DNA from: Dehalococcoidia bacterium
Lineage (GTDB): Bacteria > Chloroflexota > Dehalococcoidia > Lucifugimonadales > GCA-2712585
Direction of reading: 5' to 3'
DNA length: 64,000 nucleotides
Assembly (NCBI GenBank): GCA_965207845.1
Contig: CBDBNU010000002.1
Location: 720,323 to 784,322 of the forward strand
Shown here: piece after piece, positions 11,039 through 64,000 of the stretch
How positions within the stretch are numbered: position 1 is the stretch's first letter
How the letters are laid out: every line of letters begins with the position of its first letter
Translations under genes and position numbers: made by a program
Notes under the pieces: model-generated
The model's database searches: none
What the model saw: only the letters and a program-made list of their open reading frames with translations
Told to the model about the DNA's origin: nothing

Positions 11039-11062
11039 CTTAGTATATCGTTCATCAGCGTC

Positions 11063-24844: not shown

Positions 24845-24912
24845 GGCTGACTCCTTGTTTTCTGCTCCGGCTAGCAGTTCGTCGTATTGTGCTAGGACTT
24901 TGGGGCCAACGG

Positions 24913-25458: not shown

Positions 25459-25590
25459 CGAGTTATCCTGGCTAAGTTTGGGAGTGAACTACCTAATACT
25501 AGGAGTGGCTTCAAATGACTCCTAGCACCGCCGCGGAAACAGTTAGAATTCGCTACTGGGTCAATCTGGCACGTAAATTAACCAAAAACA

Positions 25591-25617
25591 GGCCCGGCAG
25601 GGTCCGAACCCACGACT
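25591..25617 (-). repeat. 27-nt copy of the 3' end of the tRNA-Met gene (att-like direct repeat)
   Basis: ggcccggcagggtCcgaaccCacgac here versus ggcccggcagggtTcgaaccTacgac at 27115-27141. Same orientation, 2 mismatches. The flanking sequence is not tRNA-like. Confidence 0.7.
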
Positions 25618-25696
25618 GATAACGCTGGTCCACCCGAACTGCGGAATGCGTTGCTTCCTCCTTGGAATCGCGGCCTACACCCGCGACCCCATCAAG

Positions 25697-26980: not shown

Positions 26981-27113
26981 GCCACGATTCCTCCTAGCAG
27001 TTAAGGCTTATCACATTCCGGGGTCTGTTCCGCTGTTTTGAAAGCATCCCGGCAACCAAGAATTCAGCCCCACGGTCCTTGAAGACAATTTGGCGTTTGC
27101 CAGCAGAATTTGA

Positions 27114-27185
27114 TGGGCCCGGCAGGGTTCGAACCTACGACCAACCGGTTATGAGCCGGCCGCTCTACCACTGAGCTACGGGCCC
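27114..27185 (-). tRNA. tRNA-Met (anticodon CAT; could alternatively be the lysidine-modified tRNA-Ile2)
   Basis: Minus strand: GGGCCCG TA GCTC AGTGGTA GAGC G GCCGG CTCATAA CCGGT TGGTC GTAGG TTCGAAC CCTGC CGGGCCC A. All four arms pair, the T-loop is TTCGAAC, and CCA is not encoded. The G1-C72 pair and the weak anticodon stem argue against an initiator. Confidence 0.85.
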
Positions 27186-30457: not shown

Positions 30458-30500
30458 CCGCCACAATGACGCTGCTTCAGTTGGGGCCACTTCATCTTCG

Positions 30501-30539
30501 CCCTTCCCCCTTGATGGGGGAAGGTTCGGATGGGGGTGA
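30501..30539 (+). repeat. REP-like element, family B (copy 1)
   Basis: cccttccccc ttga tgggggaagg ttcggatgggggtga: a 9-bp hairpin plus a G-rich tail. Confidence 0.8.
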
Positions 30540-35441: not shown

Positions 35442-35447
35442 CTACTC

Positions 35448-35485
35448 CCTTCCCCCTTGATGGGGGAAGGTCAGGATGGGGGTGT
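35448..35485 (+). repeat. REP-like element, family B (copy 2)
   Basis: cccttccccc ttga tgggggaagg tcaggatgggggtg. Confidence 0.8.
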
Positions 35486-47982: not shown

Positions 47983-49680
47983 CTACACCGTCGGCCGCTT
48001 GTCCTTCAACACGTCCGCAGCCCGCGCCGGGTACGGCAGCTCGTCCGGGTCCACCGGAATCTCGATCAGCGTCGGCCCGCCCGACGCCAACGCCTCCGAC
48101 ATGGCCTCCGTCAGTTCTCGTTCGTCCGACGCGTAGAACCCCTTGCCCCCAAACAGGTCCATCAGCTTGTCCAGCCGTGGGTTGGTGATATCCGCCTCGA
48201 TGTACCGCTCCCCGTAGAAGAACTTCTGGTACGCCTTCTCGGACCCCCACGAGTTGTTGTTCATCACAATCGCCACCACCGGAATGTTCCACCGCACCGC
48301 CGTCTCCATCTCCTGCACGTTCATCAGGAAACCCCCGTCGCCGTTGATGCTTATCACCGGCCTGTCGGGACACCCCATCTTCACCCCCAACGCCATCGGA
48401 TAGCTGATTCCGATGCACCCCAGGTCCAGCGGGCTGGTCAGGCTGTACGGACGATTGAAGTCCAGCCTGTCGTAGGCGTATCCCGAAGCCGCTCCCGCCT
48501 CGATAACCGTCAGCGCGTCAGCGGGATAGACTCGACGCAGCACGTGATAGACCTCCTGCGGCTTCAGTATCTTCCCGGCCCGAGGCCGTTCCCCATCCAG
48601 CCGATCTCGCCGCTGCCGCCGAAGCTTCGACGCCACGCCCAAGCGCGCCTCTCCGCCCGGCGGCGCTCCCAACTCCCCCACCAACTCCAACAGCGCCCGC
48701 GACGCCGCCCCCACGTCCCCCAGAATCCCCACCTCAACAGGATGATTCCTGCCAAGCTCCTCCTCGTCTATCTCCACCTGCACAATCTTCGCTTCCCGCG
48801 GTATGAACCTGTTGTCGTAGAACGTCGTGAAGTGCGATAGCCGCGTCCCCAGCGCCAGCACCACGTCCGCCTGCTGCACCAGTTCCGCCGCCTCCGGCGC
48901 CCCCGCCCGACCCAGCATCCCCACGTACAACCTCTCGTCGTTGGGCATCGAGTCCACCCGCCCGTAGGACGCCACCATCGGCGCGGCCAGCGCCTCCGCC
49001 AATGCGACGACCTCCTCGTGGGCTCGGCTCCATTTCACTCCCCCACCCACCACAATTACAGGAAACTTCGCGTCCCGCAACACCTCGGCCGCCCGACGCA
49101 GCAACGCCGGGTCTCCAGCCGATGCCTGCGCCTGACGCACTGGCCCCAGCATCCCCTCGTCCGCCTCCACCGCCGTCTCATTCTGAATGTCCCGCGGAAT
49201 GTCCACCACCACCGGCCCCATTTTCCCCGACTTCGCAACCCGAAACGCATGCAGCAGCGTGTCCGGTATCCGCCCCGCGTTCGGAGCCATCACCGACGCT
49301 TTCGCCACCGGACGAAACACCCCCACGTGGTCCACCTCCTGAAACGACCCGCGCCCCATGTGCTCCGTCGAAATCCCGCCAATCATCGCCACCATCGGCG
49401 CGTGGGTCACCTGCGCCCCCGCCACCGGCGTCACCAGGTTCGTCGCCCCAGGCCCGTTCGTCACCAGGCACACCCCCGGTTTGCCCGTCGCGTGGGCGTA
49501 CCCCAGCGCCATAAACCCCGCCCCCTGCTCGTGACGCGTCCCTACGTACTGAATGTCCTCCAACCCGTACATCGCGTCCATAATCTCCAGAAAAGCCGAG
49601 CCCACGACTCCGTAAACGTAGCGCACCCCCTGAGACCGCAGCACCTCCACCACCCACTGACCCGCCGACATCTTGACCAT
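47983..49680 (-). CDS. Thiamine-diphosphate-dependent enzyme (acetolactate-synthase-like large subunit family)
   Basis: Start at the ATG at 49680 (GGAGGGAGCAAAG upstream). ThDP motif GDGGFLMN-x22-NNN. N-terminal pyrimidine-binding domain ...GTRHEQGAGFMALGYA.... Confidence 0.85.
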   Translation of the reverse strand: MVKMSAGQWVVEVLRSQGVRYVYGVVGSAFLEIMDAMYGLEDIQYVGTRHEQGAGFMALGYAHATGKPGVCLVTNGPGATNLVTPVAGAQVTHAPMVAMIGGISTEHMGRGSFQEVDHVGVFRPVAKASVMAPNAGRIPDTLLHAFRVAKSGKMGPVVVDIPRDIQNETAVEADEGMLGPVRQAQASAGDPALLRRAAEVLRDAKFPVIVVGGGVKWSRAHEEVVALAEALAAPMVASYGRVDSMPNDERLYVGMLGRAGAPEAAELVQQADVVLALGTRLSHFTTFYDNRFIPREAKIVQVEIDEEELGRNHPVEVGILGDVGAASRALLELVGELGAPPGGEARLGVASKLRRQRRDRLDGERPRAGKILKPQEVYHVLRRVYPADALTVIEAGAASGYAYDRLDFNRPYSLTSPLDLGCIGISYPMALGVKMGCPDRPVISINGDGGFLMNVQEMETAVRWNIPVVAIVMNNNSWGSEKAYQKFFYGERYIEADITNPRLDKLMDLFGGKGFYASDERELTEAMSEALASGGPTLIEIPVDPDELPYPARAADVLKDKRPTV

Positions 49681-49822
49681 CTTTGCTCCCTCCATCACTC
49701 TTCGCTCTCTTGGTTCTACAACATACCGAGGGGAACCTCAAGAGGAAATCAAGAATCATCTGCATCGAGGCCGACTTTGGACTAGCCGCGCCAGCCCCAA
49801 CACCGCGGCACCATGAACCAGA

Positions 49823-52312
49823 TTACTCTTCTGGACTACAGCGCAGCAGGCCTGTTTTTCTTACCCAAATCTCCGGGAGTTCCTGCGCAATACAGCCCGT
49901 GAAATGATTCCCGTTTAGCCATAACGTCTCCAGCTTGGTAAGGCTGGCTAGTTCCGCAGGAATATCTCCACTTAGTTGGTTGCCCTGGAGCATCAATGTT
50001 GAAAGTTTCGTGAGGTTGCCAAGCTCCGCAGGTATCTCTCCCGTTAGCTGGTTATTGCCCAGATTCAATGTCACGAGCTCAGTCAGGTTTCCCAGCTCTG
50101 ACGGTATCTCCCCAGTCAGCCGATTCAAACGCAGGACCAATTGATCGAGATTGGTGAGATTGCCTAGCTCCGCAGGTATCTCTCCGGTCAATTCATTCTC
50201 TCGCAAAATCAGTCCAATTAGGCTGGAGAGGTTTCCTAATTCCGATGGAATGGGGCCTGCGAGAGCGTTCTCGGCGAGCTCCACCCCGGTAACCTGGCCC
50301 ATCGTGTTAGTAAACACCCCGTGCCATGCACCCAACGGCACGGCGCTGACCCAGTCTCTGTTGTTTACCCAATTCTCTCCCCCGGTGGCGTTGTAAAGCG
50401 CGACCAACGGGGGCAAGTCCGGCGAATCCTCTAGTACCCGGTCGATTAAGGGACTGCCGTGATATCGACGCCAGGCCGAGTCAAATTCCACTTCTCTTCC
50501 AGGTGGCACGTTGGAATTAAACGCATGAAATACGCTGTCGTGGTTTGGATTCTCAAAAATCAGTCCCTGCGCATGAAGATCTCTCATGGCCGCAGCCGCT
50601 GCCTCTGGTCCCAACGCCTCATACATTCCCAGCATAAACCTTTCGCCAAGCCTGTAATCGCAAATCCCTCCCCTGTAGGGATTTACATGTTCCCAGATGT
50701 TCTCCGCGCATCCCCCGGTGGATTCTAGTCCCTCTAACCGATCTTCCAGCTCTTCTCCGCCGGATTGGGCCTTAGTGTAGGCCTCCAGGAAATTTGCTGT
50801 TCCCTCCGTTAGCCATCTCGATCCTGCCTGAATATAGTAGTGGCCGAGTTCGTGAAAGAGCGTACCCACGGGAGGGCCCGTCTCCCGGTTTTCTACCAGA
50901 ATTATCGATGTCAAATAGCACGGATCCACGTTGCCCCCGCCCGCGCAAAACAAACGGTTCTCCCCACTGCCCGAAATCTCCCAGAATTCCGGCTCAACTA
51001 GAAGAACTATTACATCGCTTAGCGGCAACTCCGCCCCCATGAAGTCTTCCATTACTCGTATCCCATGCGCCAACGCCGACAGCGCATAATCGTCAGGAGG
51101 GAACGGAGTATGCCTGACCACGCTAATTCCCACGTCTCCCGACAAAGGGAGGGTAACGAACGCCGACGCTACATGGTTGGTCTCAATCAGGGCTTGTTGA
51201 AATTCGTCATCGGTATCGCCTATCGCGTGCAACAGCGCCGCTTCATCATCATCCAAACCGTCTTGGAACCATGGTTGACTGACAACCCGAGACAAGACTT
51301 CTGAATCTCCTTCGTACAAGCTCCAACCTGTGCTGGAGTCTTCATCGGGGCCAACTATATTTGCCGGCGGGCCTGACAGAGACCAAAGATACAATGATTC
51401 CAGCGCATACTCGTCTCTCTGTCGAAATGGCGACTCGACCACATGCCACGCAAATTCCAGGTTGCTTTCGGATAAATCTCGAACAGCCACCAGGGATTTG
51501 AGCTTTGCCTCTGTTATTCCGTCCCCAACCCACGAATATCCTAGCACTCGCTGGAACAAATCAGGGTCCACATACTGTATTTCTGCTAAGACTCCAATGG
51601 CCTCCAACTCAAGAACGGCTGGTTCGCTGTCCTCAATCCAGGGAACACTCATCAGCAACGCCGTAGACTCCTCATCAGTTACGGATATGTTCCAAAGCCC
51701 CTGCGCGGCATATTTCTCAATTTCTGTGACCCCGTCCGCCATCCACGGCAGCGCTTCCACTGCCTCCCGGCTCCCAGGCCCCGGCGTCGGCTCAGGAGTT
51801 GGTTCCGGCATTGGCATCGGCGTGGGTGCGGGCGTAGGCGAAGGCTCAGGCGTTGGCGCCACGGCAATGGAAGCCGTATGCTTTGGAGTAGGGGCGGGCG
51901 CTGCCTCCGGACTTGGCGTTTGCGTGGCTGTTGGTGCAGGCGCGGGCGTAGGGGTTGGCGTCGATACAGGCATCGGGGTGGCTTGCGACGAAGGGTCAGG
52001 CGTAGGTGTAAGTGTAGGTGTTGCCTGTGGAGTAGGCTCAGGCGTCGACTCGGACGGAGAAGCAGGTGTCGGCTCCGCCGTGGGCGGTGCCGTAGGTGCC
52101 GGAGTGGGCCCCGGGATTTGCTCCGGCATCTCCATCTGTATGGGAATTGGTGTCGAGGTCGATACTAGGTCTGAATTGGATGTGTCTCTCGGTACAACAG
52201 TACCTGTGGGTGGGAGATCATTCTCGCAGGCTGCAAATACAATCAATGCCAACAATTGCAACAAACAAACAACAACTATATGCGGAATACGCCTTCTCAT
52301 GCCAATTAACAT
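49823..52312 (-). CDS. Lipoprotein: Pro/Thr-rich linker + peptidase-MA-like (HExxH) core + C-terminal plant-type leucine-rich repeats (copy B, HExxH intact)
   Basis: Signal peptide plus lipobox (LIVFAAC). About 130 aa of PTPEP-type linker. TLFHELGHYY...WLTEGTANFLE (gluzincin-like). Then six or more 24-aa LRRs of the form LxxLxxLxLxxNxLTGEIPxELGN. Confidence 0.75.
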   Translation of the reverse strand: MLIGMRRRIPHIVVVCLLQLLALIVFAACENDLPPTGTVVPRDTSNSDLVSTSTPIPIQMEMPEQIPGPTPAPTAPPTAEPTPASPSESTPEPTPQATPTLTPTPDPSSQATPMPVSTPTPTPAPAPTATQTPSPEAAPAPTPKHTASIAVAPTPEPSPTPAPTPMPMPEPTPEPTPGPGSREAVEALPWMADGVTEIEKYAAQGLWNISVTDEESTALLMSVPWIEDSEPAVLELEAIGVLAEIQYVDPDLFQRVLGYSWVGDGITEAKLKSLVAVRDLSESNLEFAWHVVESPFRQRDEYALESLYLWSLSGPPANIVGPDEDSSTGWSLYEGDSEVLSRVVSQPWFQDGLDDDEAALLHAIGDTDDEFQQALIETNHVASAFVTLPLSGDVGISVVRHTPFPPDDYALSALAHGIRVMEDFMGAELPLSDVIVLLVEPEFWEISGSGENRLFCAGGGNVDPCYLTSIILVENRETGPPVGTLFHELGHYYIQAGSRWLTEGTANFLEAYTKAQSGGEELEDRLEGLESTGGCAENIWEHVNPYRGGICDYRLGERFMLGMYEALGPEAAAAAMRDLHAQGLIFENPNHDSVFHAFNSNVPPGREVEFDSAWRRYHGSPLIDRVLEDSPDLPPLVALYNATGGENWVNNRDWVSAVPLGAWHGVFTNTMGQVTGVELAENALAGPIPSELGNLSSLIGLILRENELTGEIPAELGNLTNLDQLVLRLNRLTGEIPSELGNLTELVTLNLGNNQLTGEIPAELGNLTKLSTLMLQGNQLSGDIPAELASLTKLETLWLNGNHFTGCIAQELPEIWVRKTGLLRCSPEE

Positions 52313-52364
52313 ACATCATCCACGTACAGTGAAAGAACCCCTCTCCCTCCCCCAAAGACCCTTC

Positions 52365-52901
52365 TTACAACGCCGGCGGCACCACTTCCGAACCCCTCAT
52401 CACCTCATCCCGCGTTAACAGCGGTACGTCATGCACAACGCTCGTCGCCGCGATTATCTCACCCGCCGGGCTCCCCCTGAAATCCAGACGCGTCGACGCC
52501 ACCGACACCGCAAGATCAATAGGCCACACCTGAATTCGACCCAACACGCGCACCACCTCCTGAAACGACCCTCTACCCATGTGTTCCGTCGAAATCTCGC
52601 CAATCATCGCCACCATCGGCGCGTGGGTCACCTGCGCCCCCGCCACCGGCGTCACCAGGTTCGTCGCCCCCGGCCTGTTCGTCACCAGGCACACCCCCGG
52701 CCTGCCGGTCGCGTGGGCGTACCCCAGCGCCATAAACCCCGCCCCCTGCTCGTGACGCGTCCCCACGTACTGAATGTCCTCCAACCCGTACATCGCGTCC
52801 ATAATCTCCAGAAACGCAGACCCCACGACCCCGTAAACGTAGCGCACCCCCTGAGACCGCAGCACCTCCACCACCCACTGACCCGCCGACATCTTAACCA
52901 T
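52365..52901 (-). pseudogene. Chimeric ORF created by tandem duplication: first 115 codons of the ThDP enzyme fused to the last about 63 codons of a PIN/VapC gene
   Basis: MVKMSAGQ...GRGSFQEV differs from the intact gene at 49680 at 3 of 115 residues. It is joined to VRVLGRIQVWPIDLAVS...VVPPAL, near-identical to 55472..55659. Junction at CCACC, 52553-52557. Confidence 0.75.
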
Positions 52902-53025
52902 CTTTGCTCTCCTTAACCTTGCCGTTTTCAGCCACGCCAAACCGGCTATTTCCCAAAATACCCTCGCCAAACGGACTTGCTGGGAGAGACTATGGATGAG
53001 GTGCCTTATTCGGAGCAACTAATGC

Positions 53026-55419
53026 CTATGAGCCTGCCTCGGCTTCTGTTGTGCATCGTGCCAAGCGCGATTTCTCGACCCATATTTCGGGAAGCTCTTC
53101 CGCAATGCAGCCAGTGAATTCGTTAACCCCAAGATCCAAGCTTCTGAGATTCACCAGATTGGCAAGCTCTGATGGTATCTCGCCGCTAAAGAAATTCCCC
53201 GAGACATCCAACTTCCTGAGCTTCACCAAGTTTCCCAGTTCGGCCGGTATCTCGCCGGTGAGGTCGTTACCCTGAAGTTCCAATATCTCCAATTTCACCA
53301 ATCGGCCGAACTGAGGAGGTATCTCCCCCACCAGACGATTTGCTCTCAAGTCCAAATCCAACAGGCTTGTGAGATTGCCCAACTCAGGGGGAATGGTTCC
53401 AGTCAATCTATTGCTCCCGAGACTCAATTTCGTTAAGTGGGCGAGGCCCCCCAATTCCGGCGGGATATCACCTGCAAGACCGCTGGCAAAGAGTTCTACC
53501 TGTACAGCCCTCCCAAAGGCATCCGTGGACACTCCGTACCAGGCCCCCGGTGGCGCGTCGCTGGCCCAGTTCCTGCTATATAGCCAGTTCTCTCCAAGAG
53601 TGGCGTCGTAGAGCGCTAAGAGCGGTGGCAAATCCGGTGAGTTTGCCCAGTCTTGGTCAGCAATAGGCCCGCCATGATACTGTCGATAGACAGCACGGAA
53701 TTCTTCCTCGTTCCCCTCCGGGACATTCTTCAAAAACGCATAGAAGATGTGGTCCTCACTATGGTCCAGGAACAAATACCTCTGACCATACAATTCCCGC
53801 AATCCCCCGGATACTGCCCCCGCTCCCAGGACAGAATTTATCCCCAGCAGGAATCGTTCCCCCAGCAATTGGTCGCAGTCCCTGCCGCCAAACAAGGAAA
53901 TGTGAAGCCAGAGACTCTCCCCACATACTCCGTCGGATTCGATGCTTGCCAATCGCTCTTCAAGTGATTCTCCACCCATTTCAGCTTCAACGTGCGCTTT
54001 CAGAAATCTCGCTGTCGCCGTATTGAGCCACCATGGTTCCGGAACTGCGTAGTATTCCCCAATCACCTCCAAGAGTGCCTCCCTCGAAGGTCCCTCTTCA
54101 GGATTCTCCGCCCACAAAATCGACCTTAGATAGCATTGGTCCAATCTGCTGCCGCTACATGAACTATCATTAAACGCCGCGTGTCTGGCATTCCAGAATT
54201 CCGGCTCGACTAGGAGGAGAATCACGTCGCCAAGGGGCAGCGGCACTTCCATAAATCCTTCCATCGCTCGCAACCCTTCATCTAGAGTCGCCAACGTGTC
54301 GTCGTCCGAGAGAATTGGAGTCTGACTGACAACGGCAAGTCCCACTGAGCCGGACAAGGGAAGCTCAATAGTAGTGGATACAACGTAGTGTTCCTCAACC
54401 AGCGCCATGGTAAATGCACCTAGACCCCTGCTTTCGTGAATTGCATATATCAGCGCCGCTTCTAGATCATCCAAACCATCCTCAAACCACGCCTGGTTGT
54501 TCAATTTGTCCAATAATTCAGCATCTTCCTGCTGGCCGGATAGATGCATGATATGCAGAGAATTCAAAGCATCCGCATCTCTTTGCATAAACGGCGCATC
54601 CATGAAAGGTGACCTCACTACATGCCAGGTCAATACCATGTCATACTGGGCAAGACGCTCAATACTACCTATCGCCCTGGACTCTGCCGCCGTAATCCCA
54701 TCCAGGGCCCACGAGAAGCCTAGAACTGCCTGCGCCAACTCCGGGTCATGGTTCCATAACCTTGGTATCGTGGCAATCACGGATAATTCACTATTCGAAA
54801 TCTCGGCATTGTCTACCCACGGAAAACTCAGTACTAATGATGTTAGTTCCATGTCGATATACCATAAGGCAGTTAGCGCCTCGACGGGATATGCTTCTTC
54901 AACGGTTATCCCATCTGCAACCCAGGGCAACGCATATACTGCAGCCGGACTCCCAGGTTCCGGGGTCGGCTCAGGAGTCGGTTCCGGCGTCGGCTCTGGC
55001 GTGGGCTCAGGTGTTGGTGCTGGTGCCGGCTCAGGCGTCGGCTCTGGCGTGGGCTCAGGTGTTGGTGCTGGTGCCGGCTCAGGCGTCGGCGTAGGCTCAG
55101 GAGTTGATTCCGGTGTCGGCTCCGGCGTAGGCTCAGGCGTAGGTGTCGGCGTTGATTCCGGTGTCGGCTCAGTCGTCGGCTCCGCCGTGGGCGGTGCCGT
55201 TGGTGCCGGCGTAGACTCCGGGGTTTGCTCCGGCATCTCCATCAGTATGGGAGATGGTGTCGAGGTCGATACTAGGTCTGAATTGGATGAGTCTCTCGGT
55301 ACAACAGTACCGGTGGGTGGGAGATCATTCTCGCAGGCTGCAAATACAATCAATGCCAACAATTGCAACAAACAAACAACAACTATATGCGGAATACGCC
55401 TTCTCATGCCAATTAACAT
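53026..55419 (-). CDS. Lipoprotein paralogue: Pro/Thr/Glu linker + degenerate peptidase-MA-like core + plant-type LRRs (copy A, HExxH lost)
   Basis: The first 80 aa or so are nearly identical to copy B, after which the two diverge strongly. The position equivalent to FHELGHYY reads LEVIGEYY, and WLTEGTA reads WLNTATA. C-terminal LRRs of the form NxLTG(T/E)IPPELGN. Confidence 0.75.
54989..55084 (-). repeat. Perfect 48-nt tandem duplication inside the Pro/Thr/Glu linker of copy A
   Basis: The unit gtcggctctggcgtgggctcaggtgttggtgctggtgccggctcaggc occurs twice (54989-55036 and 55037-55084). It encodes repeated [16 protein letters not shown]. Confidence 0.8.
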
Positions 55420-55471
55420 ACATCATCCACGTACAGTGAAAGAACCCCTCTCCCTCCCCCAAAGACCCTTC

Positions 55472-56374: not shown

Positions 56375-56622
56375 ACAATTCAATTCTCCATTTCACCCTT
56401 TCTCAGGCGTGAAATCCACCAAAAGCAACCCGAATTGTTTCCAAAACAATTTCCTCTCAGGCACGGACTCCGGGAATCAATTCCGAATCAACTACGCGCA
56501 ATCCCCCATTGATTTCGAGACAATCCCCACTACCCACCCATACCCCATTCCCCCTATAATGTCCCCAATCACCCCGTAGGGGCCTCCCCTTAACCTCTTC
56601 CCCCTCTATGAGGCAAGCCGTT

Positions 56623-56666
56623 CTTGCCTCCTCTCCCATCGTGGGAGAGGATTGAGGTGAGGGTGA
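56623..56666 (+). repeat. REP-like element, family A (copy 2)
   Basis: cttgcctcctctccc atcg tgggagagg attgaggtgagggtga. Confidence 0.8.
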
Positions 56667-56706: not shown

Positions 56707-57444
56707 ATGCGACTCAAAGGCAAAGTCGCCCTCATATCCGGCGCCGCCCGCGGCATGGGCGCCACCGAAGCCCGTCTCTTCGCCAGCGAAGGCGCCCAAG
56801 TCGTCCTCGGCGACGTCCTCCACCAGCAAGCCCAGGCCGTCGCCGACGAAATCAACAATTCCGGCGGCCAGGCCCTCTTTGTACCCCTCGACGTTACCAG
56901 CGAGGACAGCTGGCGCGAGGCCGTCAACGCCGCCGAGCAGCACTTCGGCAACATCAGCGTCCTCGTCAACAACGCGGGCATCCTCGTCCGCGAGGAACTC
57001 GAAGAGGGCACCGACCCCGGCTGGGACAGCACCATGAATGTCAACGCCAAGGGCGTCTACCTCGGCATGAAGCAGGCCGTCCCCTCCATGCTCCGGGCCG
57101 GCGCCGGCTCCATCATCAATATCTCCAGCATCTCCGGCATCGTCTCCCTCGGCTACCCCGCCTACAACGCCTCCAAGGGCGCCGTCCGCATCGTCACCAA
57201 GACCGTGGCCATGGAATATGCCGACAAAAACATCCGTGTGAACTCCATCCACCCCGGCGTCATCAACACGGACATGATGGGCGGCGACACCCGCGCCGCC
57301 GAGGATTGGGACCGTCTTATCCCCCTGGGCCGTTTTGCCGAACCCATCGAGGTCGCCTATGGCGCCCTCTTCCTCGCCTCCGACGAATCATCCTTCATGA
57401 CCGGCTCAGAACTCGTAATCGACGGCGGCTTCACCGCCCAATAA
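56707..57444 (+). CDS. SDR-family oxidoreductase (classical, glucose/3-oxoacyl-reductase-like)
   Basis: ISGAARGMG (TGxxxGxG variant), NNAG, SSISG, YNASK. AAAGGAG RBS. Confidence 0.9.
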   Translation: MRLKGKVALISGAARGMGATEARLFASEGAQVVLGDVLHQQAQAVADEINNSGGQALFVPLDVTSEDSWREAVNAAEQHFGNISVLVNNAGILVREELEEGTDPGWDSTMNVNAKGVYLGMKQAVPSMLRAGAGSIINISSISGIVSLGYPAYNASKGAVRIVTKTVAMEYADKNIRVNSIHPGVINTDMMGGDTRAAEDWDRLIPLGRFAEPIEVAYGALFLASDESSFMTGSELVIDGGFTAQ

Positions 57445-57457
57445 CCCATTCCCCTCT

Positions 57458-57501
57458 CTTGCCTCCTCTCCCGTCGTGGGAGAGGATTGAGGTGAGGGTG
57501 A
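57458..57501 (+). repeat. REP-like element, family A (copy 3)
   Basis: cttgcctcctctccc gtcg tgggagagg attgaggtgagggtga. Confidence 0.8.
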
Positions 57502-57514
57502 ATCCCTTCTTGTC

Positions 57515-57552
57515 TCTTCCCCCTCGATGGGGGAAGATTAAGATGGGGGTGA
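57515..57552 (+). repeat. REP-like element, family B (copy 3)
   Basis: tcttccccc tcga tgggggaaga ttaagatgggggtga, directly following a family A copy. Confidence 0.8.
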
Positions 57553-57595
57553 CTCCCCAGCACCAACAACCAACCACCGCACCCAAAGGAGAAAA

Positions 57596-58336
57596 ATGCG
57601 ACTCCAAGACAAGGTAGCCATCATCACCGGCGCCGCCCGCGGCATGGGCGCCGCCGAAGCCCGTCTCTTCGCCAAAGAGGGCGCTAAGGTCGTCGTCGCC
57701 GACGTTCAGGTCGAAGACGGCCGGAGCGTCACCAACGAAATCAACGACGCCGGCGGCACGGCAGTCTTCGTGGAAATGGACGTCAGCAGCCAGGCCGACT
57801 GGGACCGCACCATCGACGCCGCCATCTCCAACTTCGGCAAGATCAACGTCCTCGTCAACAACGCCGGCATCATCGAGCGTGAAACCCTGGAGGAGACCTC
57901 CGAGGAGACCTGGGACGGCATCATGGCCGTCAACGCCAAGGGCGTCTTCCTCGGCACCAAGGCCGTCATTCCCCACATGAAGGCTGCTGGCGGCGGATCC
58001 ATCGTCAACATCTCCAGCATCTCCGGCATGATCTCCGTCGGCTACCCCGCCTACAACGCCTCCAAGGGCGCCATCCGCGTCTTCACCAAGAGCGCCGCGG
58101 TGGAATTCGCCCGCGACAACATTCGCGTCAATTCCATCCATCCCGGCACCATCTGGACCTCCATGTCCACCTACAAGCGGGCCTTCACCCGCGAGGAGAG
58201 GGCCCAGACCATCCCCATGAAGAGGGTCGCCGAGCCCATCGAAATCGCCTACCCCGCCCTCTTCCTAGCCTCCGACGAGTCCTCCTACATGACGGGCAGC
58301 GAAGTCGTCATCGATGGCGGCGTTACCGCGGAATAA
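57596..58336 (+). CDS. SDR-family oxidoreductase, tandem paralogue
   Basis: ITGAARGMG, NNAG, SSISG, YNASK. By eye roughly 60 percent identical to the upstream SDR. Confidence 0.9.
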   Translation: MRLQDKVAIITGAARGMGAAEARLFAKEGAKVVVADVQVEDGRSVTNEINDAGGTAVFVEMDVSSQADWDRTIDAAISNFGKINVLVNNAGIIERETLEETSEETWDGIMAVNAKGVFLGTKAVIPHMKAAGGGSIVNISSISGMISVGYPAYNASKGAIRVFTKSAAVEFARDNIRVNSIHPGTIWTSMSTYKRAFTREERAQTIPMKRVAEPIEIAYPALFLASDESSYMTGSEVVIDGGVTAE

Positions 58337-58501: not shown

Positions 58502-59311
58502 ACTGCCCAGGAATGGCTCGCCATGATCCGCGCCGAACACGCCCAGACCGAACGCCTCCGTGACCAACCCAACCCCCACGACGACCACTGGCACGGCATG
58601 ACCGTCAGCTTCCGGTCCGACCCCCATCGCACCGACGACGCCCTCCTGAATCGCCTCCTGCATCTGGTGAACCCCGGCCACACAATTATGGACGTTGGCG
58701 CAGGCCCCGGCCGCCTCGCCCTCCCCCTCGCCCTGCGGTGCAGTCACCTCACTGCCGTCGAACCCTCCCCCGCCATGGCCCAGGCCTTCCGGGAGGAAGC
58801 AGACAATCACGACATCCGTAACGTCACCCTCGTCGAGTCCACCTGGGAAGACGCCGAAGTCGAACCCGCCGACATAGTTCTCTGCTCTCACGTCGTCTAC
58901 ACCGCCCGCCGCATAGACACATTCCTCCAGAAGCTCACCGACCACGCCAGGGAATGCGTCCTCGTCATCCTCCACTGGGACCCACCCCAGCACCGCGCCT
59001 ACCCCCTCTGGCCCTATATCCACGGCGAAACCCGCCTCCCCCTGCCCGCGGGTCCCCAACTCCTTGAAGTGCTGGACGAAATGAACATCTCCTACACCCT
59101 CGAAGACCTCCCGACGCCGGAGCTCCACGGCTTCCAGACCCCCGACGAAGCGTGGCAGCAGACAAGGGGGATGCTCTTCCTCACCGAAGGCAGCGAAAAG
59201 GATAACCTCCTCCGGTCCACCATCGAAGACCACCTGGAACAGCGAGACGGCGAACTCTACCTCAAAGACGCCAAACCCATGCGCCCCGTCCTAATCACCT
59301 GGCGCCCCTAG
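58487..59311 (+). CDS. Class I SAM-dependent methyltransferase
   Basis: Motif I IMDVGAGPGRLALPLA and post-I LTAVEPS. Confidence 0.8.
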   Translation: MPTPETAQEWLAMIRAEHAQTERLRDQPNPHDDHWHGMTVSFRSDPHRTDDALLNRLLHLVNPGHTIMDVGAGPGRLALPLALRCSHLTAVEPSPAMAQAFREEADNHDIRNVTLVESTWEDAEVEPADIVLCSHVVYTARRIDTFLQKLTDHARECVLVILHWDPPQHRAYPLWPYIHGETRLPLPAGPQLLEVLDEMNISYTLEDLPTPELHGFQTPDEAWQQTRGMLFLTEGSEKDNLLRSTIEDHLEQRDGELYLKDAKPMRPVLITWRP

Positions 59312-59314
59312 TAT

Positions 59315-59376
59315 CCCTTCCCCCTTGATGGGGGAAGGTTAGGCCTGTCCTGAGCCTGCCGAAGGGATGGGGGTGA
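59315..59376 (+). repeat. REP-like element, family B (copy 4, with a 22-nt internal insertion)
   Basis: cccttccccc ttga tgggggaagg ttagg [cctgtcctgagcctgccgaagg] gatgggggtga. Confidence 0.75.
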
Positions 59377-59382: not shown

Positions 59383-60849
59383 CTAAACCGCCGCCTCAGC
59401 CTCCGCCCGCTCCTTAATCCCCCGCATCATCCGGTAGATGAAGAACGCCCCCATGCAGAAAGCCACCGCACATATCAGCAGCATCACGTAGTACCCCGAA
59501 TGCTGCTGTATGCCGTTCAGAAAGTCCACCAGCGGGCCCCCCAGCCGAGAAGCCGCCAGTCCCCCCACCAGCGCGAAGTTCGCCAGCCCCATCTGCAGCG
59601 CCGCCCGGTTCTCCGAAACCATGTCCGTTATCAACGCTCGCCCCGCCGAGAAGAACAGCCCCGCCGCCACCCCCAGCACTATCCCAATCAGCACCACGTG
59701 CACCAGGTTCTGGGCCAGGTAGAATACCAGCGTACCCCCGGCTCCCAGCACCGACGACACGTACAACAGCGGCGCTCTCCCCACCCTGTCCGCCAGCACT
59801 CCCGCCGGCCACAGCGTCAGAATGATGGCCAGCCCCGCCGTCGCTGCCAGCCACGACATCCCGGAGGCCGGCTTCTCCAGCGCCACCACGTCCTGCAGGA
59901 AGTAAAACGTGTACGCCATCAGAATGCCGCCCGCCAGCGTGTAGGAGAATGCCGCCGAAAGCATTGTCATATTGCGCCTTGTGACGCCCAACGCCGTAAT
60001 GGCAGACCGGAGTCTTCCCCCCGCGACGGGCGTCCCCTCCGAGGCCTTGCTGGCAGCCGATTTTGCCCTCTCTTCTTCTTCAGCCTTTCTCGCCGCAGCC
60101 CTCTGTTCAGTCGTTGGCTGCCTGTCCCTGACCAACAACAACGTCCAGACCGCCGTAATTGCCAGCACCCCCGTAGGCAGCCCCAGCGAAATCCACAGCC
60201 ACACGTCCCGGCTTCCCTTTACGTGGTGGTCCATGATGAAGCCCGTGATAAGCAGCAACAGCACCGCACCCGCCGCTCCGGCGATGGCCCGAACCGACGC
60301 CATCTTCCCCCGCTGATTGTGCGGCACCTGGTCCTTCAGCATCGCGTCGTAGGGCGTCTGCGAAACGTTTATGAAGAACTGCACCAGCACCGCCGATATG
60401 AGCAGTCCGACGAAGTTTACCGCCGCCCCAACTCCGACCATCAGCCCCGTCGCGACCAACGACCCCACGGCAATGTATGGCCGACGCCTCCCCCATCCCC
60501 ACGTGGTTTTGTCGCTCAGATACCCCACCACCGGCTGAATCAGCATCGCGCCGCCCATGCCGATGAATGTGAGTATCCCCAGGTAGGTGTTCTTCAAAGA
60601 CTCCGGCGCCACGTCCAATACGCGCAGCGGCAGAATGATGTACCCCAGGCTGGTGGAAATAGCCGCGATGCCGAAGGCCAGAGTGCTGAAGTTCACATAA
60701 CCCACAACCCCCGAGATACCCTTGCCGTCCGGTCCCTCCGCTTCCCCGTTCCCCGCCTCCCCAACGCTGCCTTTGCGAGAGGCAGCATCGTTCCCCGTCT
60801 CTATGGTGTCCACCGACGGTTTGCTATCTCCTAGGGTGCTATCGTCCAT
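59383..60849 (-). CDS. MFS transporter
   Basis: 488 aa, 12 hydrophobic helices with a long central loop, MFS-like DRVGR motif. Confidence 0.85.
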   Translation of the reverse strand: MDDSTLGDSKPSVDTIETGNDAASRKGSVGEAGNGEAEGPDGKGISGVVGYVNFSTLAFGIAAISTSLGYIILPLRVLDVAPESLKNTYLGILTFIGMGGAMLIQPVVGYLSDKTTWGWGRRRPYIAVGSLVATGLMVGVGAAVNFVGLLISAVLVQFFINVSQTPYDAMLKDQVPHNQRGKMASVRAIAGAAGAVLLLLITGFIMDHHVKGSRDVWLWISLGLPTGVLAITAVWTLLLVRDRQPTTEQRAAARKAEEEERAKSAASKASEGTPVAGGRLRSAITALGVTRRNMTMLSAAFSYTLAGGILMAYTFYFLQDVVALEKPASGMSWLAATAGLAIILTLWPAGVLADRVGRAPLLYVSSVLGAGGTLVFYLAQNLVHVVLIGIVLGVAAGLFFSAGRALITDMVSENRAALQMGLANFALVGGLAASRLGGPLVDFLNGIQQHSGYYVMLLICAVAFCMGAFFIYRMMRGIKERAEAEAAV

Positions 60850-60944
60850 GCCCCGTCCAACTCATCCTTCGCCCGTTCTACATACCCGGGATCGCCCCAA
60901 TGAATCTAAGTGAATCCGCTCCCAGATGCAAGCCAACCCCCCTC

Positions 60945-60993
60945 GTGACACGTTTGACGTGCCAACCGGCCCCTTCTCCCCTATAATAGCCCC
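60945..60993 (+). repeat. 49-bp direct repeat, left copy (carries a promoter-like sequence)
   Basis: gtgacacgtttgacgtgccaaccGgccccttctcccctataatagcccc. It differs at one position from the copy at 61912-61960. Confidence 0.85.
60959..60987 (+). promoter_or_regulatory. Candidate promoter inside the left repeat (drives the PLD-like gene)
   Basis: Perfect TATAAT at 60982-60987. GTGCCA lies 17 nt upstream (4/6 to TTGACA). A better TTGACG at 60954-60959 is 22 nt away. The ATG is 42 nt downstream. Confidence 0.4.
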
Positions 60994-61028
60994 ATCCTCG
61001 GGACCTCAACCCAATTACTGGAGAAATC

Positions 61029-61889
61029 ATGGCAGAATTCCTTACTACGTCCGGCGTATCGGACTGGCTTGAGAGAATAATAAAAGAAGCCAATAGTCGG
61101 TTAATACTAATCAGCCCTTATCTCCAAGTGAACCCGAAGATCAAAAAGCTTTTGCAAGCCAAGAACCATGAAATCCAAACCATGGAGGAGTCGCGTTTTT
61201 CTAAAGCAATTTCGATTTTCAAGGGCGGAGATACTACATCGAAAATGCAAGTCCAAATCATTCATCGGAGAGACGCAGTTAGGGCTAATGAAATATCTTG
61301 GTTGCAAGATCTCAGTTCAATAGAAGCCATATCATTGGAAAACTTGCACGCCAAATGCTACCTGAACGAGAACCATGCACTAATTACCTCAATGAATCTA
61401 TATCAACACTCGCAAGTACATAACTATGAGATGGGCATCTTGGCAACCCGGAGCGGAGGCTGGGGCGATGGTGGTAGTGAACTCTACAAAGCAATAGTGA
61501 AACATGCCGAGGAATTGATTACGCATGCCAAGATGGAAAATCCAATAGTCGGCCCAGTTAGGCCATCCCCTGAATCTCAAGCAAACAGTGTGACCGTGTC
61601 AGCAGAGTCTAACGCTCCAAAGCGTTCCGTTGGCCGCAACAGAAAAGCGTCCACAGCAACTCTGGAACGTCCATCAACCGGCTACTGCATCCGTTGCGGC
61701 GAGTCAATCCCAGAGTCCGCAGAATCCAAGCCGTTCTGCGCGAAAGACTGGCGCACGTGGAACCGGTTCAAGAGAGATGATTTTGCAGAGAAATTCTGCC
61801 ATTTCTGCGGTCAACCGTCCGAGACCTCGAAAGGCAAGCCGCTCTGCTTGGACTGCTTCCGCAAGTTTAAGAGCATTCTGAATTTCTAA
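61029..61889 (+). CDS. PLD/HKD-superfamily (Nuc-like) protein with a C-terminal double zinc ribbon
   Basis: A single HKD-type motif LHAKCYLNENHALITSMN (HxK-x4-[D/E]-x6-[G/T]SxN). The C-terminus has CIRCG-x13-C and CHFCG-x11-CLDC. The gene is clearly A+T-richer than its neighbours. GGAGAAATC RBS. Confidence 0.7.
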   Translation: MAEFLTTSGVSDWLERIIKEANSRLILISPYLQVNPKIKKLLQAKNHEIQTMEESRFSKAISIFKGGDTTSKMQVQIIHRRDAVRANEISWLQDLSSIEAISLENLHAKCYLNENHALITSMNLYQHSQVHNYEMGILATRSGGWGDGGSELYKAIVKHAEELITHAKMENPIVGPVRPSPESQANSVTVSAESNAPKRSVGRNRKASTATLERPSTGYCIRCGESIPESAESKPFCAKDWRTWNRFKRDDFAEKFCHFCGQPSETSKGKPLCLDCFRKFKSILNF

Positions 61890-61911
61890 GCCTGTCCCTC
61901 GTCTCCCCCTT

Positions 61912-61960
61912 GTGACACGTTTGACGTGCCAACCCGCCCCTTCTCCCCTATAATAGCCCC
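61912..61960 (+). repeat. 49-bp direct repeat, right copy
   Basis: gtgacacgtttgacgtgccaaccCgccccttctcccctataatagcccc, 967 bp from the left copy. Confidence 0.85.
61926..61954 (+). promoter_or_regulatory. Candidate promoter inside the right repeat (drives the hydantoinase gene)
   Basis: TATAAT at 61949-61954, 34 nt upstream of the ATG at 61988. Confidence 0.4.
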
Positions 61961-61987
61961 CACATCATGAACCACGGGAGGCGCACT

Positions 61988-63406
61988 ATGGCAGACATTC
62001 GAGTGGACACAATCATTGCAGGCGGTAAGGTCGTCACCTCCTCCGACGTTTTCGACGCCGCCATTGCCATTTCAGGCGACAAGATTGCCGCCATCGGCCC
62101 CGAGCATCTCCTCCCACCCGCCGACCGCTACATCGACGCCTCTGGCAAGTTCATCCTTCCCGGCCTTATCGATTGCCACGTCCACCTCGACCGCTGCGAC
62201 TCCTACGAGCTTGGCTCCGTCGCCGCCGCCCACTCCGGTCTCACCACCCTGCTGCCCTTCGGCACCTACGACGTCGAAGCCGAAGAGACCCTCCCTTCCG
62301 CAATCAATCGACATCGCGAAGAAATCGAATCAACCGCCGTCGTCGATTTCGCCTTCCACTACATCTTGAACAACCGACCCTACATCCTGAAGAGCCTCCC
62401 CCAGGCCCTCGAAATGGGCGTCACCTCGTTCAAGATGTTCATGTCCTACAAGAAGAACCAGGTCCGCATGTGCACCGACGACTTTATCTGCCAGGTCATG
62501 GAGACCGTGTCCAAGGCCGGTGGCATCGTCCAGCTTCACTGCGAAAGCGGGAACATCATCGACTACCTGGAAAATCAGCTCATCGACCAGGGCTGCGTCC
62601 ACCCCACCGATTTCCCCTCCGCCTGTCCCGACTGGGCCGAAGAAGAAGCAATCAACCGCGCCATCAAGATGGGCGGCGTCACCAACTGCCCCGTCTACGT
62701 CGTCCACCTAAGCACCCACGTCGGCATGGAGCGGATCAAGCAGGCTCAGGCCGAGGGACAGCGTGTCTGGACCGAGACCTGTCCCCAGTACCTCCTCCTG
62801 TCCGACGAGGAGATGGCCAAGGTGGGACCCCTCGCCAAAATCGGCCCGCCCCTTCGTCCCAAGGACGGCCCCGACCAGCCCGCCATGTGGAAGGGACTGG
62901 AGCTTGGCTACATCTCCACCCTCGGCAGCGACCACGCCCCTCACTTCAAACACCTCAAGGCCCCCGGCTGGAAAAACATTTTCGTAAACCCGGATGGTAG
63001 CCCCGTCCCCTTCGGCTCTCCCGGCGTCGAGACCATCGCCCCCCTTGCCTTCAGCGAAGGCGTCCTGGGACGGGACCTCCCCGTCACCTGGCTCGCCCGC
63101 ATCATGTCGGAAAACCCCGCCCGCATCTTCGGCATCTACCCTGAGAAGGGTTCCCTCCAGGTGGGCACCGACGCCGACATCACGATTCTCGACCCCGAGG
63201 GCGAAACCATAGTCCGCGCGGAGGACCATCACGGCAACTCCGGCTTCACCCTCTACGAGGGCTGGAAGGTGAACGGCAAGCCGTGGATGACATTCCTTCG
63301 AGGTCAGGTCCTCTTTAACCAGGGTCGTCTCGAGCAGAAACCCGGCTACGGACGCTTCCTCAAAAGCGGCAGCCCCACTCCGCCCCTTGGCGGCCCCGTC
63401 CGCTAA
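61988..63406 (+). CDS. Dihydropyrimidinase/hydantoinase-type cyclic amidohydrolase
   Basis: Start at the ATG at 61988 (GGGAGG upstream). GLIDCHVHL (HxH), FKMFMSYK (carboxylated-Lys region), VQLHCE, VYVVHLS, GSDHAP. Confidence 0.85.
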   Translation: MADIRVDTIIAGGKVVTSSDVFDAAIAISGDKIAAIGPEHLLPPADRYIDASGKFILPGLIDCHVHLDRCDSYELGSVAAAHSGLTTLLPFGTYDVEAEETLPSAINRHREEIESTAVVDFAFHYILNNRPYILKSLPQALEMGVTSFKMFMSYKKNQVRMCTDDFICQVMETVSKAGGIVQLHCESGNIIDYLENQLIDQGCVHPTDFPSACPDWAEEEAINRAIKMGGVTNCPVYVVHLSTHVGMERIKQAQAEGQRVWTETCPQYLLLSDEEMAKVGPLAKIGPPLRPKDGPDQPAMWKGLELGYISTLGSDHAPHFKHLKAPGWKNIFVNPDGSPVPFGSPGVETIAPLAFSEGVLGRDLPVTWLARIMSENPARIFGIYPEKGSLQVGTDADITILDPEGETIVRAEDHHGNSGFTLYEGWKVNGKPWMTFLRGQVLFNQGRLEQKPGYGRFLKSGSPTPPLGGPVR

Positions 63407-63417
63407 CTGCTCACTGC
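63355..63417 (+). repeat. About 63-bp direct repeat, left copy (the last 16 codons and stop of the hydantoinase gene)
   Basis: cttcctcaaaagcggcagccccactccgCCCCtTggcggccccgtccgctaactgctcactg. It recurs exactly 480 bp downstream with about 5 mismatches. Confidence 0.85.
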
Positions 63418-63482
63418 AACTGTTGCACTGAGAAGCCAGCGTGCGATACAATTGTTTTGCAATTGTAAAGGAGCGTGGGTTT

Positions 63483-63668
63483 ATGGCGACTGTTGAGGAA
63501 CGGCTGAGTAGACTGGAAGGGGCTTACGAGCACTTGGCTACCAAATCGGACATAGCCAACCTGGACGTCAAGATTGCGACTCTCAAGGCTGATCTCATCA
63601 AGTGGATGGTCGGTACACTGCTGGTCGGTATCGTCGCCACGGCAACCATCGTCAGAACCATAAGTTAG
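63483..63668 (+). CDS. Small coiled-coil protein with a C-terminal TM anchor (DUF1640-like, hypothetical)
   Basis: Start at the ATG at 63483 (AAGGAG upstream). MATVEERLSRLEGAYEHLATKSDIANLDVKIATLKADLIKWMVGTLLVGIVATATIV. An 8-bp inverted repeat TACAATTG/CAATTGTA lies at 63447-63467, just upstream. Confidence 0.5.
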   Translation: MATVEERLSRLEGAYEHLATKSDIANLDVKIATLKADLIKWMVGTLLVGIVATATIVRTIS

Positions 63669-63698
63669 AAACTGAGTATTCACTGAATCCGACAACGG

Positions 63699-63725
63699 CG
63701 GGCCAATTGGCCCGTCATTCCTTTC
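63699..63725 (+). terminator. Candidate terminator hairpin after the small gene
   Basis: CGGGCC AATT GGCCCG (63699-63714) followed by tcattcctttcc. Confidence 0.4.
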
Positions 63726-63834
63726 CTGATATCTCTCCGACGGTGAAAGGGAACTCACGTGAAATGGCAAGAATTCTGGTCAAAGACCGCTTCATTGACA
63801 AGACCAGGTCAGGAAGGGTTCGAGGGCTCCTAGC

Positions 63835-63897
63835 CTTCCTCAAAAGCGGCAGCCCCACTCCGACTCTCGGCGGCCCCGTCCGCTAACTGCTCACTGG
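63835..63897 (+). repeat. About 63-bp direct repeat, right copy
   Basis: cttcctcaaaagcggcagccccactccgACTCtCggcggccccgtccgctaactgctcactg. Weaker similarity continues for about 10 nt. Confidence 0.85.
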
Positions 63898-64000
63898 AAA
63901 TGTTGACAGCCGGCAGGCAAAACTGGGAAAATCCCGTGAGTCTCTTTTGAGATTCAATCGCAATCTTTGGCTCATCGGCTGAAACACTGTGACGGCCGTT

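Follow-up and report, generated by a model that had tools for sequence, protein, structure and literature searches.

The DNA analysed here, hereafter the window, is a 64,000-nucleotide (nt) stretch of contig CBDBNU010000002.1 from a Dehalococcoidia bacterium (assembly GCA_965207845.1). Near its right end, a foreign gene for a phospholipase D (PLD)-like protein, devoid of a promoter of its own and carrying its own ribosome-binding site (RBS), lies between two copies of the promoter of the following gene. The latter, the resident of the site, encodes a hydantoinase/dihydropyrimidinase-type amidohydrolase ("hydantoinase" below; orthologues are 93-98% identical at the protein level). Judged by its hydantoinase gene, the host belongs to an uncultured Dehalococcoidia lineage. 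The cassette is surrounded by MFS, methyltransferase, SDR and hydantoinase genes. Its two direct repeats are 56 nt long, identical at 54 of 56 positions and spaced by 967 nt, and they include a 49-mer core (60945-60993 and 61912-61960) with a single G/C difference. A sequence-only reading had recognised this 49-mer with its one mismatch and its promoter-like character. It had proposed that a foreign, A+T-rich gene was inserted between the hydantoinase promoter and its coding sequence (CDS), with duplication of a host segment that left a promoter copy to each gene. These claims hold on closer analysis, with the repeat extended to 56 nt and two mismatches. The features of the locus are collected in Table 1.

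Table 1. Features of the repeat-bounded PLD cassette and its surroundings (window positions).
Feature	Coordinates	Strand	Details
MFS transporter gene, conserved left flank, divergent	59383..60849	-	Pfam MFS_1 1.1e-30; orthologous across all related loci
Left 56-nt direct repeat, promoter copy 1	60938..60993	+	-35-like GTGCCA 60959-60964; -10 TATAAT 60982-60987
Leader of the PLD gene, 35 nt	60994..61028	+	RBS GGAG 61020-61023
PLD cargo gene, 286 amino acids (aa)	61029..61889	+	PF13091 1.7e-5; phrog_9329 5.6e-36
Spacer, 15 nt, from PLD stop codon to right repeat	61890..61904	+	
Right 56-nt direct repeat, promoter copy 2	61905..61960	+	-35-like 61926-61931; -10 TATAAT 61949-61954
Hydantoinase leader and CDS, resident gene	61961..63406 (RBS GGGAGG 61976-61981; CDS 61988-63406)	+	Amidohydro_1 2.4e-19
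Second duplication-bracketed insert	63355..63905	+	71-nt direct repeat 63355-63425 / 63835-63905, 93% identical

Promoter prediction assigns to each repeat copy a sigma-70-like promoter (GTGCCA-17 nt-TATAAT) that agrees with the consensus at 10 of 12 positions, and the region as a whole contains seven promoter-like sites vs 1.2 expected. The end of TATAAT lies 41 nt from the ATG of the PLD gene (61029) and 33 nt from that of the hydantoinase gene (61988), each ATG being served by an RBS (GGAG and GGGAGG, respectively), as had been read from the letters. The left copy stops at about the expected transcription start, and is homologous to the single hydantoinase promoter of relatives that have no cassette. 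Within the window genome, the leader of the PLD gene is unrelated to that of the hydantoinase gene; an RBS region of their own comes with the PLD genes both here and at a second site, upstream of an aroE-like gene (see below). The string ATGGCAGA starts the hydantoinase gene and is also the first 8 nt of the PLD gene, making it a plausible microhomology for the original left junction. The PLD stop codon is followed by a 15-nt spacer, devoid of a terminator, and then by the right repeat; PLD transcripts should therefore read through into the hydantoinase gene. Neither convincing inverted repeats at the cassette ends nor a recombinase among the open reading frames (ORFs) scanned were found, in line with the first reading. 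The repeat holds no structured RNA or riboswitch, the only Rfam match in the window being a tRNA-Met. An exact-sequence look-up of the PLD and hydantoinase proteins returned no record.

In composition, the insert (60994-61904) departs strongly from its surroundings, with a GC content of 0.476 vs 0.625 and 0.617 in the flanks. At third codon positions (GC3), the PLD gene stands at 0.53, below the hydantoinase gene (0.81) and the MFS gene (0.80). The GC skew of the + strand, which is negative (C over G) over nearly all of the stretch from ~6000 to 64000 regardless of gene orientation, falls to about zero within the PLD cassette. The repeat itself is not a dispersed element. Apart from the two copies, no 49-mer with three or fewer mismatches occurs in the window (none is expected from shuffles), and the 23-nt part of the repeat that is specific to the window is absent from 185,579 representative genomes. 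Its lone metagenome match is an unrelated contig with 24 nt in common. A dispersed repeat, which had been named as a finding that would speak against the insertion, can thus be discarded.

Relatives document both states of the site. At five related loci (L001, L002, L003, L008 and L054) it is empty, consisting of the MFS gene, one promoter copy and the hydantoinase gene, in exactly the form predicted beforehand. These empty sites include that of the closest relative, L001 (92% nucleotide identity in the hydantoinase gene). Six further loci from five metagenome-assembled genomes (MAGs), namely L004, L005, L006, L007/L053 and L177, are filled with divergent PLD alleles, and at every filled site a second homologue of the hydantoinase promoter stands upstream of the PLD gene. 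The idea of a private, one-off insertion has thus to be abandoned, since six other related loci share the layout. The same finding bears on a trivial explanation, in which the repeat and the enclosed gene were mis-joined from reads of different populations. The source is evidently a MAG, and in the related MAG L053 there are frameshifts of the kind that long-read errors produce, but seven independent assemblies at this site, and six at the aroE site, have the same architecture, two positions distinguish the repeat copies, and the reading frames are intact. An artefact is hence hardly credible.

The duplicated segment varies between the filled sites. The repeat measures 48 nt in L004 (85% identical), 23 nt in L005 (exact), 121 nt in L177 (83%), and 78 nt in L006 (94%), where it runs through the RBS to the ATG. 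In L007, a 53-nt repeat (94%) lies more upstream and overlaps the 3' end of a different upstream ORF; when the diverged promoter copies are included, the duplicated span reaches ~145 nt. Since the L006 repeat reaches the ATG and the L007 span is that long, the duplicated segment was probably longer originally. Alignment suggests that the right junction of L004 is in a position similar to that of the window. The left copies of L004 and L005 are alike, share derived states, and differ from the right copies, which argues for an old duplication that has not undergone conversion. The window and L006 have left copies that agree with the right copy of the same genome, and therefore the duplication has been renewed there. 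The window-specific variant GTGACACGTTTGACGTG is likewise present in both repeat copies and missing from L001. Elements related to the repetitive extragenic palindromic (REP)-like elements of the window (see below) are inserted beside the PLD cassette in L005, L006, and L177.

The PLD alleles have a history of their own. By nucleotide identity of the hydantoinase gene, L004, L005, and L006 form a group (95%), the window groups with L001-L003 (89-92%), and L007 is an outgroup (~81%). Synonymous divergence (dS) of the PLD gene among L004-L006 is 0.50-0.84 vs 0.20-0.21 for the hydantoinase gene; between L005 and L007, it is 0.54 vs 1.00. Two allele types are found, of 258 and 286 aa. The window allele is a mosaic, with 89-92% identity to the L004 allele in the last 180 nt and 49-79% in the remainder; the hydantoinase genes of the two are 87% identical, below the value of these 180 nt. 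It is also the least ameliorated allele, with its GC3 of 0.53, whereas that of the deepest-branching locus, L007, is near host-like (0.73 vs 0.75). The divergence of the PLD gene does not track that of the host gene, and the alleles therefore move horizontally. The presence of divergent alleles in relatives, including the near-ameliorated one of L007, shows in turn that the arrangement is old in the clade. The sequences indicate that the hydantoinase site is an old, polymorphic, present-or-absent, allele-swapping accessory locus, at which empty sites are either never filled or clean deletions between the repeats. The observation that the sequence-only reading named as contrary to its proposal, a PLD-like gene ancestral and host-like in relatives, has thus been made in part.

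Such an ancient presence invites a purely vertical account, in which the arrangement is ancestral to the clade, all empty sites are secondary deletions, and allele divergence reflects fast diversifying evolution. The filled state of L007 with its nearly ameliorated allele, the ease of loss by recombination between repeats, and the apparently similar right junctions of the window and L004 are in its favour. It is nevertheless quite improbable: synonymous divergence is both far above and far below that of the host gene depending on the pair, the alleles are mosaic, and the window allele is the least ameliorated. Furthermore, the window-specific variant occurs in both repeat copies and not in the closest relative, and the L007 repeat covers a different, more upstream segment, with boundaries unlike those of the window.

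A second PLD site has been found upstream of an aroE-like gene. In L138/L179, the PLD gene is flanked on each side by a 48-51-nt segment that includes TTGCTATACT, and the arrangement stands directly upstream of a 288-aa ORF, a putative shikimate dehydrogenase (aroE-like). L180 and L181, the nearest relatives (94-95% nucleotide identity over the first 422 nt of the aroE region), have a single promoter copy and no cassette, and the aroE sites of L187 and L188 are also empty. More distant relatives (L182-L186, ~76-80% nucleotide identity) are filled with divergent alleles, and both promoter copies keep only a 12-35-nt core. These cassettes bring their own RBS, and their left junction lies a few nt past the -10 box, as at the hydantoinase site. 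The left promoter copy of L185 has the sequence type of another lineage's promoter, and therefore appears to travel with the gene.

These observations can also be read as a cycle driven by homology. A circle made of the PLD gene and one promoter copy would be excised by recombination between the repeats, and would re-enter the empty promoter of a relative by a single RecA-dependent, Campbell-type crossover; the promoter would be a de facto attachment site, and the repeat would be made anew at each entry. In agreement with this, near-identical repeats coincide with a different allele type (window and L006) and the copies of L004 and L005 are old and diverged, the left copy in L185 is of another lineage's type and appears to accompany the gene, and empty sites are clean single copies. 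Against it, a single crossover is poorly served by imperfect homology of 50-80 nt, the cycle leaves unexplained how each locus was founded, and exchange through the far longer MFS and hydantoinase flanks accounts equally well for allele turnover. RecA-dependent pop-out and re-entry is a plausible way for the cassette to spread; as an account of the whole arrangement, the cycle is unlikely, if well short of negligible.

Duplications of this kind are not confined to PLD genes. The first example is in the window itself, immediately downstream: the 71-nt repeat of Table 1 is a copy of the last 16 codons of the hydantoinase gene, its stop codon and 20 nt. It encloses a gene for a 61-aa coiled-coil/transmembrane protein (63483-63668; weak DUF2730 and XhlA-like matches) with its own terminator (63697-63716), and past the right copy the sequence corresponds to the flank that follows the hydantoinase gene in L008. 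This small gene is multi-copy or relocated in L002, L004-L006, and L177. In L004-L006, a PrpD-like gene has its RBS and first 13 codons duplicated over 68-72 nt, with the small gene in between; at the left end of the latter, the region of the hydantoinase stop codon (CCGCTAAC...) is still present, and the joint shows 1-3 nt of microhomology. The gene order hydantoinase, small gene, PrpD, found in L002, is presumably ancestral. The copy of the small-gene cassette in L006 contains an IS1182-like element (9897-11453 of that locus) that encodes a 491-aa DDE transposase (DUF772 and DDE_Tnp_1_6), and is bounded by perfect 20-nt inverted repeats CTAGGAGTGTGTCCGAGTAA, with a target duplication of 4-5 nt. 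A transposase of the IS1182/IS1634 type acting in trans and making long target-site duplications is unsupported, this element making a duplication of 4-5 nt only.

The search for other cargo between such repeats, which the first reading had advised, was extended to high-GC loci totalling ~1.4 Mb. Lower-GC inserts with other cargo are bracketed there by pairs of repeats of 40-141 nt, and the copies of each pair typically differ by 1-12%. In L104, the 5' end of an SDR gene is duplicated over 141 nt around a MazF-type toxin cassette, and in L131 a 141-nt duplication surrounds the gene of a transmembrane protein. The L104 insert measures 2.4 kb and carries the MazF/PemK toxin gene. A PLD-family gene lies directly upstream of the SDR duplication in L104 (5001-8485), where the ATG of the left copy is mutated to ATA. 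Repeat-bracketed inserts number 6 per 423 kb around PLD genes, and the controls give 6 in 557 kb and 2 in 570 kb, which corresponds to a background of about 0.4-1.4 per 100 kb; this is not a convincing excess, and PLD genes were dismissed as promoters of nearby insertions of this type. Flanking repeats are not a hallmark of the PLD family either. When the length of upstream/downstream matches was compared with a composition-matched control at 76 other PLD-family loci, none had flanking repeats beyond the control level, L138 excepted.

The last reading to be weighed is that of a dedicated cassette, in which the PLD gene is actively inserted just downstream of promoters with ~50-150-nt target duplications, through a factor in trans or the PLD nuclease itself in a homing-like manner, the duplication being roughly of promoter length. 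It draws on the same layout at two independent loci, each with its own locus-specific duplicated promoter, on cassettes that are promoterless yet RBS-bearing, and on left junctions near the expected transcription start at both loci. The patchy presence, the empty closest relatives, and the disagreement of allele and host phylogenies recall homing endonuclease genes, and the cargo is a predicted nuclease with a putative DNA-binding zinc-ribbon domain. Against it, ~75 other loci of the family have no flanking repeats above control, repeat lengths and boundaries vary (48, 56, 78, 121, ~145 nt), the two copies are never identical, and neither terminal inverted repeats nor conserved end motifs were found. 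Moreover, nuclease-free cargo has the same duplications at 3' and 5' gene ends, and PLD is not known as a homing-endonuclease or transposase fold. Active promoter targeting is therefore judged improbable. A slightly broader proposal is that of an unrecognised type of promoter-seeking single-gene cassette, with the PLD/zinc-ribbon gene as its cargo and maybe its agent, which would enter just past an active promoter, duplicate a stretch of about promoter size (~50-150 nt) and thereby have both genes expressed, and then cycle between relatives via the duplicated promoter. It is speculative and rather doubtful; if true, these genomes may possess a dedicated route for the insertion of accessory genes with long target duplications.

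The best explanation, held with modest confidence, is a microhomology-guided illegitimate insertion that duplicated the promoter, followed by homologous exchange, gene conversion, and repeat-by-repeat deletion. Illegitimate recombination is favoured by the variable length of the duplications, the varied cargo, the non-identical copies, the putative junction microhomology, and the remnant of a former neighbour carried over with the small gene, as well as by the lack of terminal repeats, of any recombinase found, and of an attC-like structure. Among the mechanisms listed in the first reading, microhomology-driven insertion thus fits best, and att-type and integron-like capture find no support. 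Foreign DNA would have been joined illegitimately at the start of the hydantoinase gene, guided by microhomology such as the ATGGCAGA common to both genes, and two junctions overlapping by ~50-150 nt of host sequence would have duplicated promoter and leader. The route could be template switching during replication or homology-facilitated illegitimate recombination between co-resident relatives. Selection would have retained the event, the promoter being kept for both genes and the resident gene remaining intact. Subsequently, related Dehalococcoidia may exchange alleles, along with the left promoter copy, through homologous recombination that acts on the flanks or on the promoter copies; gene conversion or re-insertion may make the copies similar again, as in L006 and the window. 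Where the two copies recombine with each other, the cassette would be deleted and the empty site restored. Each gene would be transcribed from its own promoter copy, and PLD transcripts would also enter the hydantoinase gene.

Several points weigh against this explanation. Promoter activity is a prediction from consensus matches only, gene conversion between 50-80-nt repeats is an assumption, and the junction microhomology of the founding event is legible on one side only. Ancestral presence with several losses fits the pattern of presence and absence as well as gains do. Finally, the promoter-PLD-promoter-gene layout occurs at the unrelated aroE site, and the left junction is within a few nt of the expected transcription start at both loci. 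This regularity exceeds what random illegitimate recombination would produce unless selection filters strongly, and it keeps the minority reading of a dedicated mechanism alive. On balance, arrival of the PLD gene by ordinary illegitimate and homologous recombination, and not by a new kind of mobile element, is most likely.

The PLD protein is composed of an N-terminal single-HKD, Nuc-like domain, a variable linker, and two C-terminal CxxC...C..C zinc ribbons. A catalytic motif of the type HxK(x)4D(x)6GSxN is present (LHAKCYLNENHALITSMNL), and H107, K109, N113, S121, and N123 are invariant across 26 aligned homologues, with N/E in place of the canonical D. The match of the window protein to PF13091 (PLDc_2) is weak (25.1 bits for a cutoff of 27), most homologues carry a precomputed match to this family, and the match to phrog_9329, an uncharacterised phage family, is strong (Table 1). 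Weak DrmC-like matches (PADLOC DrmC models, NCBIfam NF038319) cover the PLD domain. In the AlphaFold2 model, the N-terminal domain has pLDDT values mostly >80; its top Foldseek matches are Nuc (1byr), NucT, Zucchini, PLD3, and BfiI (E-values 2.5e-6 to 3e-5), and PLD4 and SauUSI, from the nuclease branch of the PLD superfamily, are also matched. A sequence search against solved structures returned a marginal match to the DksA zinc finger only. The C-terminal zinc-ribbon module is a putative DNA-binding domain.

Homologues are widespread, with >2,900 in a large protein collection, on chromosomes, conjugative plasmids, and inoviruses. Related genes (28-40% identity), annotated as "phospholipase D family protein", are found on hundreds of conjugative plasmids and in Vibrio inoviruses. 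Across 74 chromosomal loci of the family, no conserved neighbour gene (restriction-modification, DISARM or similar) was found; a partnership with the methyltransferase gene near the cassette was rejected, as this conserved neighbour is also present at empty sites. Family members are GC-poorer than their flanks in nearly all of ~75 loci from several phyla. Given the lack of a conserved neighbour, the lower GC, and the occurrence on plasmids and inoviruses, the PLD/zinc-ribbon gene is a stand-alone, horizontally mobile, nuclease-like accessory gene. Its omega values of 0.16-0.38 indicate purifying selection, and therefore a functional gene. From the fold and the occurrence of the family on plasmids and inoviruses, the protein is predicted to be, most likely, a metal-independent DNA/RNA nuclease for defence or competition.

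Other features have been observed elsewhere in the window. At 25591-27185, a tRNA-Met (27114-27185, - strand) and a 26-nt partial copy of its 3' end (25591-25616) bracket a reductive-dehalogenase-like gene (25697-26980, - strand; TIGR02486, 2e-50); this resembles a small tRNA-targeted island, with no integrase visible. Beside it is a low-GC stretch (24000-27000, 0.46-0.55) that includes an ORF (24365-24844, - strand) with a Shedu SduA C-terminal domain (3e-17), which may be a truncated defence gene. A 3.2-kb tandem duplication (47983-55423) comprises paralogous leucine-rich-repeat genes (49823-52312 and 53026-55419, - strand) with 12-nt-period arrays (51775-52103 and 54954-55270). Between these paralogues, a 217-aa 5' fragment of a thiamine pyrophosphate (TPP)-enzyme gene (52365-53018) repeats the beginning of the intact gene (47983-49698), at 94% identity over no less than 300 nt. 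Intergenic, palindromic REP-like elements of ~43-45 nt are dispersed over 30495-59352 (CTTCCCCCTTGATGGGGGAAGGTT.GGATGGGGGTG, with an GGGAGAGGATTGAGGTGAGGGTG variant), for example at 30496-30538, 35442-35484, 56622-56666, 57457-57552, and 59310-59352. Two tandem short-chain dehydrogenase paralogues, ~75% identical and spaced by 889 nt, occupy 56707-58336 (56707-57444 and 57596-58336), and three tandem 264-nt units (67-79% identical, 132-nt sub-periodicity) lie within a coding region at 18170-18961.

The hydantoinase site, with its empty and variously filled states, shows how a compact genome can gain a foreign gene with the resident left undisturbed, the resident promoter being copied and both genes served. 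The resulting repeats permit later clean loss or exchange. Its uncommon traits are the long duplications, the promoter as the duplicated piece, and one gene family with the same layout at two loci. Sponge-associated and marine Dehalococcoidia are thereby a possible system for weighing illegitimate and homologous recombination against classical mobile elements, and the widespread, uncharacterised Nuc-like zinc-ribbon nuclease is a candidate stand-alone defence or competition gene. No direct precedent emerged from the literature searched, either for the architecture of this protein or for prokaryotic insertions that duplicate a promoter.

The comparison with known systems starts with the protein. 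Over its N-terminal 170 residues, it has the fold of Nuc (1byr, TM-score 0.72 over target), NucT, Zucchini, and BfiI (6ehi, 4ggj, 2c1l), and the H-x-K...N...S-x-N residues are invariant among its aligned homologues. It shares with BfiI the fusion of the catalytic domain to a distinct module, here a putative DNA-binding one; unlike the B3-like domain of BfiI, this is a C-terminal pair of CxxC zinc ribbons attached via a low-complexity linker. Nuc is periplasmic; a signal peptide was not noted in the PLD protein, no search having been aimed at one. The best named hidden Markov model matches of the PLD domain are to DISARM DrmC. A DISARM component was nonetheless ruled out, the score being 27.4 bits vs a 133-bit cutoff, with no drmA, drmB, drmMI, or drmE neighbours.

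As a genetic element, the cassette is comparable to those of integrons: one ORF lacking a promoter but equipped with an RBS, which depends on a promoter upstream and which some relatives have and others lack. It was rejected as such, having no attC-like imperfect palindrome (the distance from stop codon to repeat is only 15 nt) and no intI, attI, or array; unlike in integrons, its flanking repeats are locus-specific host sequence. Insertion sequences, transposons, and miniature inverted-repeat transposable elements were set aside, given the absence of terminal inverted repeats and duplications varying from 48 to ~145 nt. So was an att-flanked integrative element, the cassette being a single ORF with no integrase and the repeats of the hydantoinase and aroE sites being unrelated; an integrase may act in trans. 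Homing endonuclease genes likewise place a nuclease gene at one conserved site in some relatives, with a host-discordant phylogeny. Unlike these, most members of the PLD family are found in unrelated contexts, arguing against strict site specificity, and to our knowledge PLD is not among the homing-endonuclease families. Phage morons and single-gene defence islets are, in the same way, small AT-rich accessory genes between undisturbed conserved genes, and the PLD family also occurs in phage and plasmid genomes. Morons usually carry their own promoter and terminator; unlike them, the cassette borrows a duplicated host promoter and is devoid of a terminator.

The closest likeness in architecture is to repeat-bounded variable segments, which have been described in comparative surveys, many of them being ascribed to illegitimate or homology-assisted recombination, with bounding repeats mostly <20-30 bp (PMC2884548; PMC3119063). 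Homology-facilitated illegitimate recombination is known from Acinetobacter, Pseudomonas stutzeri, and Streptococcus pneumoniae, according to work cited in PMC2884548. These insertions or deletions share with the cassette a strain-variable segment between duplicated host pieces, of which empty alleles hold one copy, as well as putative junction microhomology and no mobile-element machinery. Unlike in the surveyed cases, the repeats described here measure 40-141 nt, the duplicated piece is a predicted functional promoter serving two genes, and the same gene family is found at two loci.

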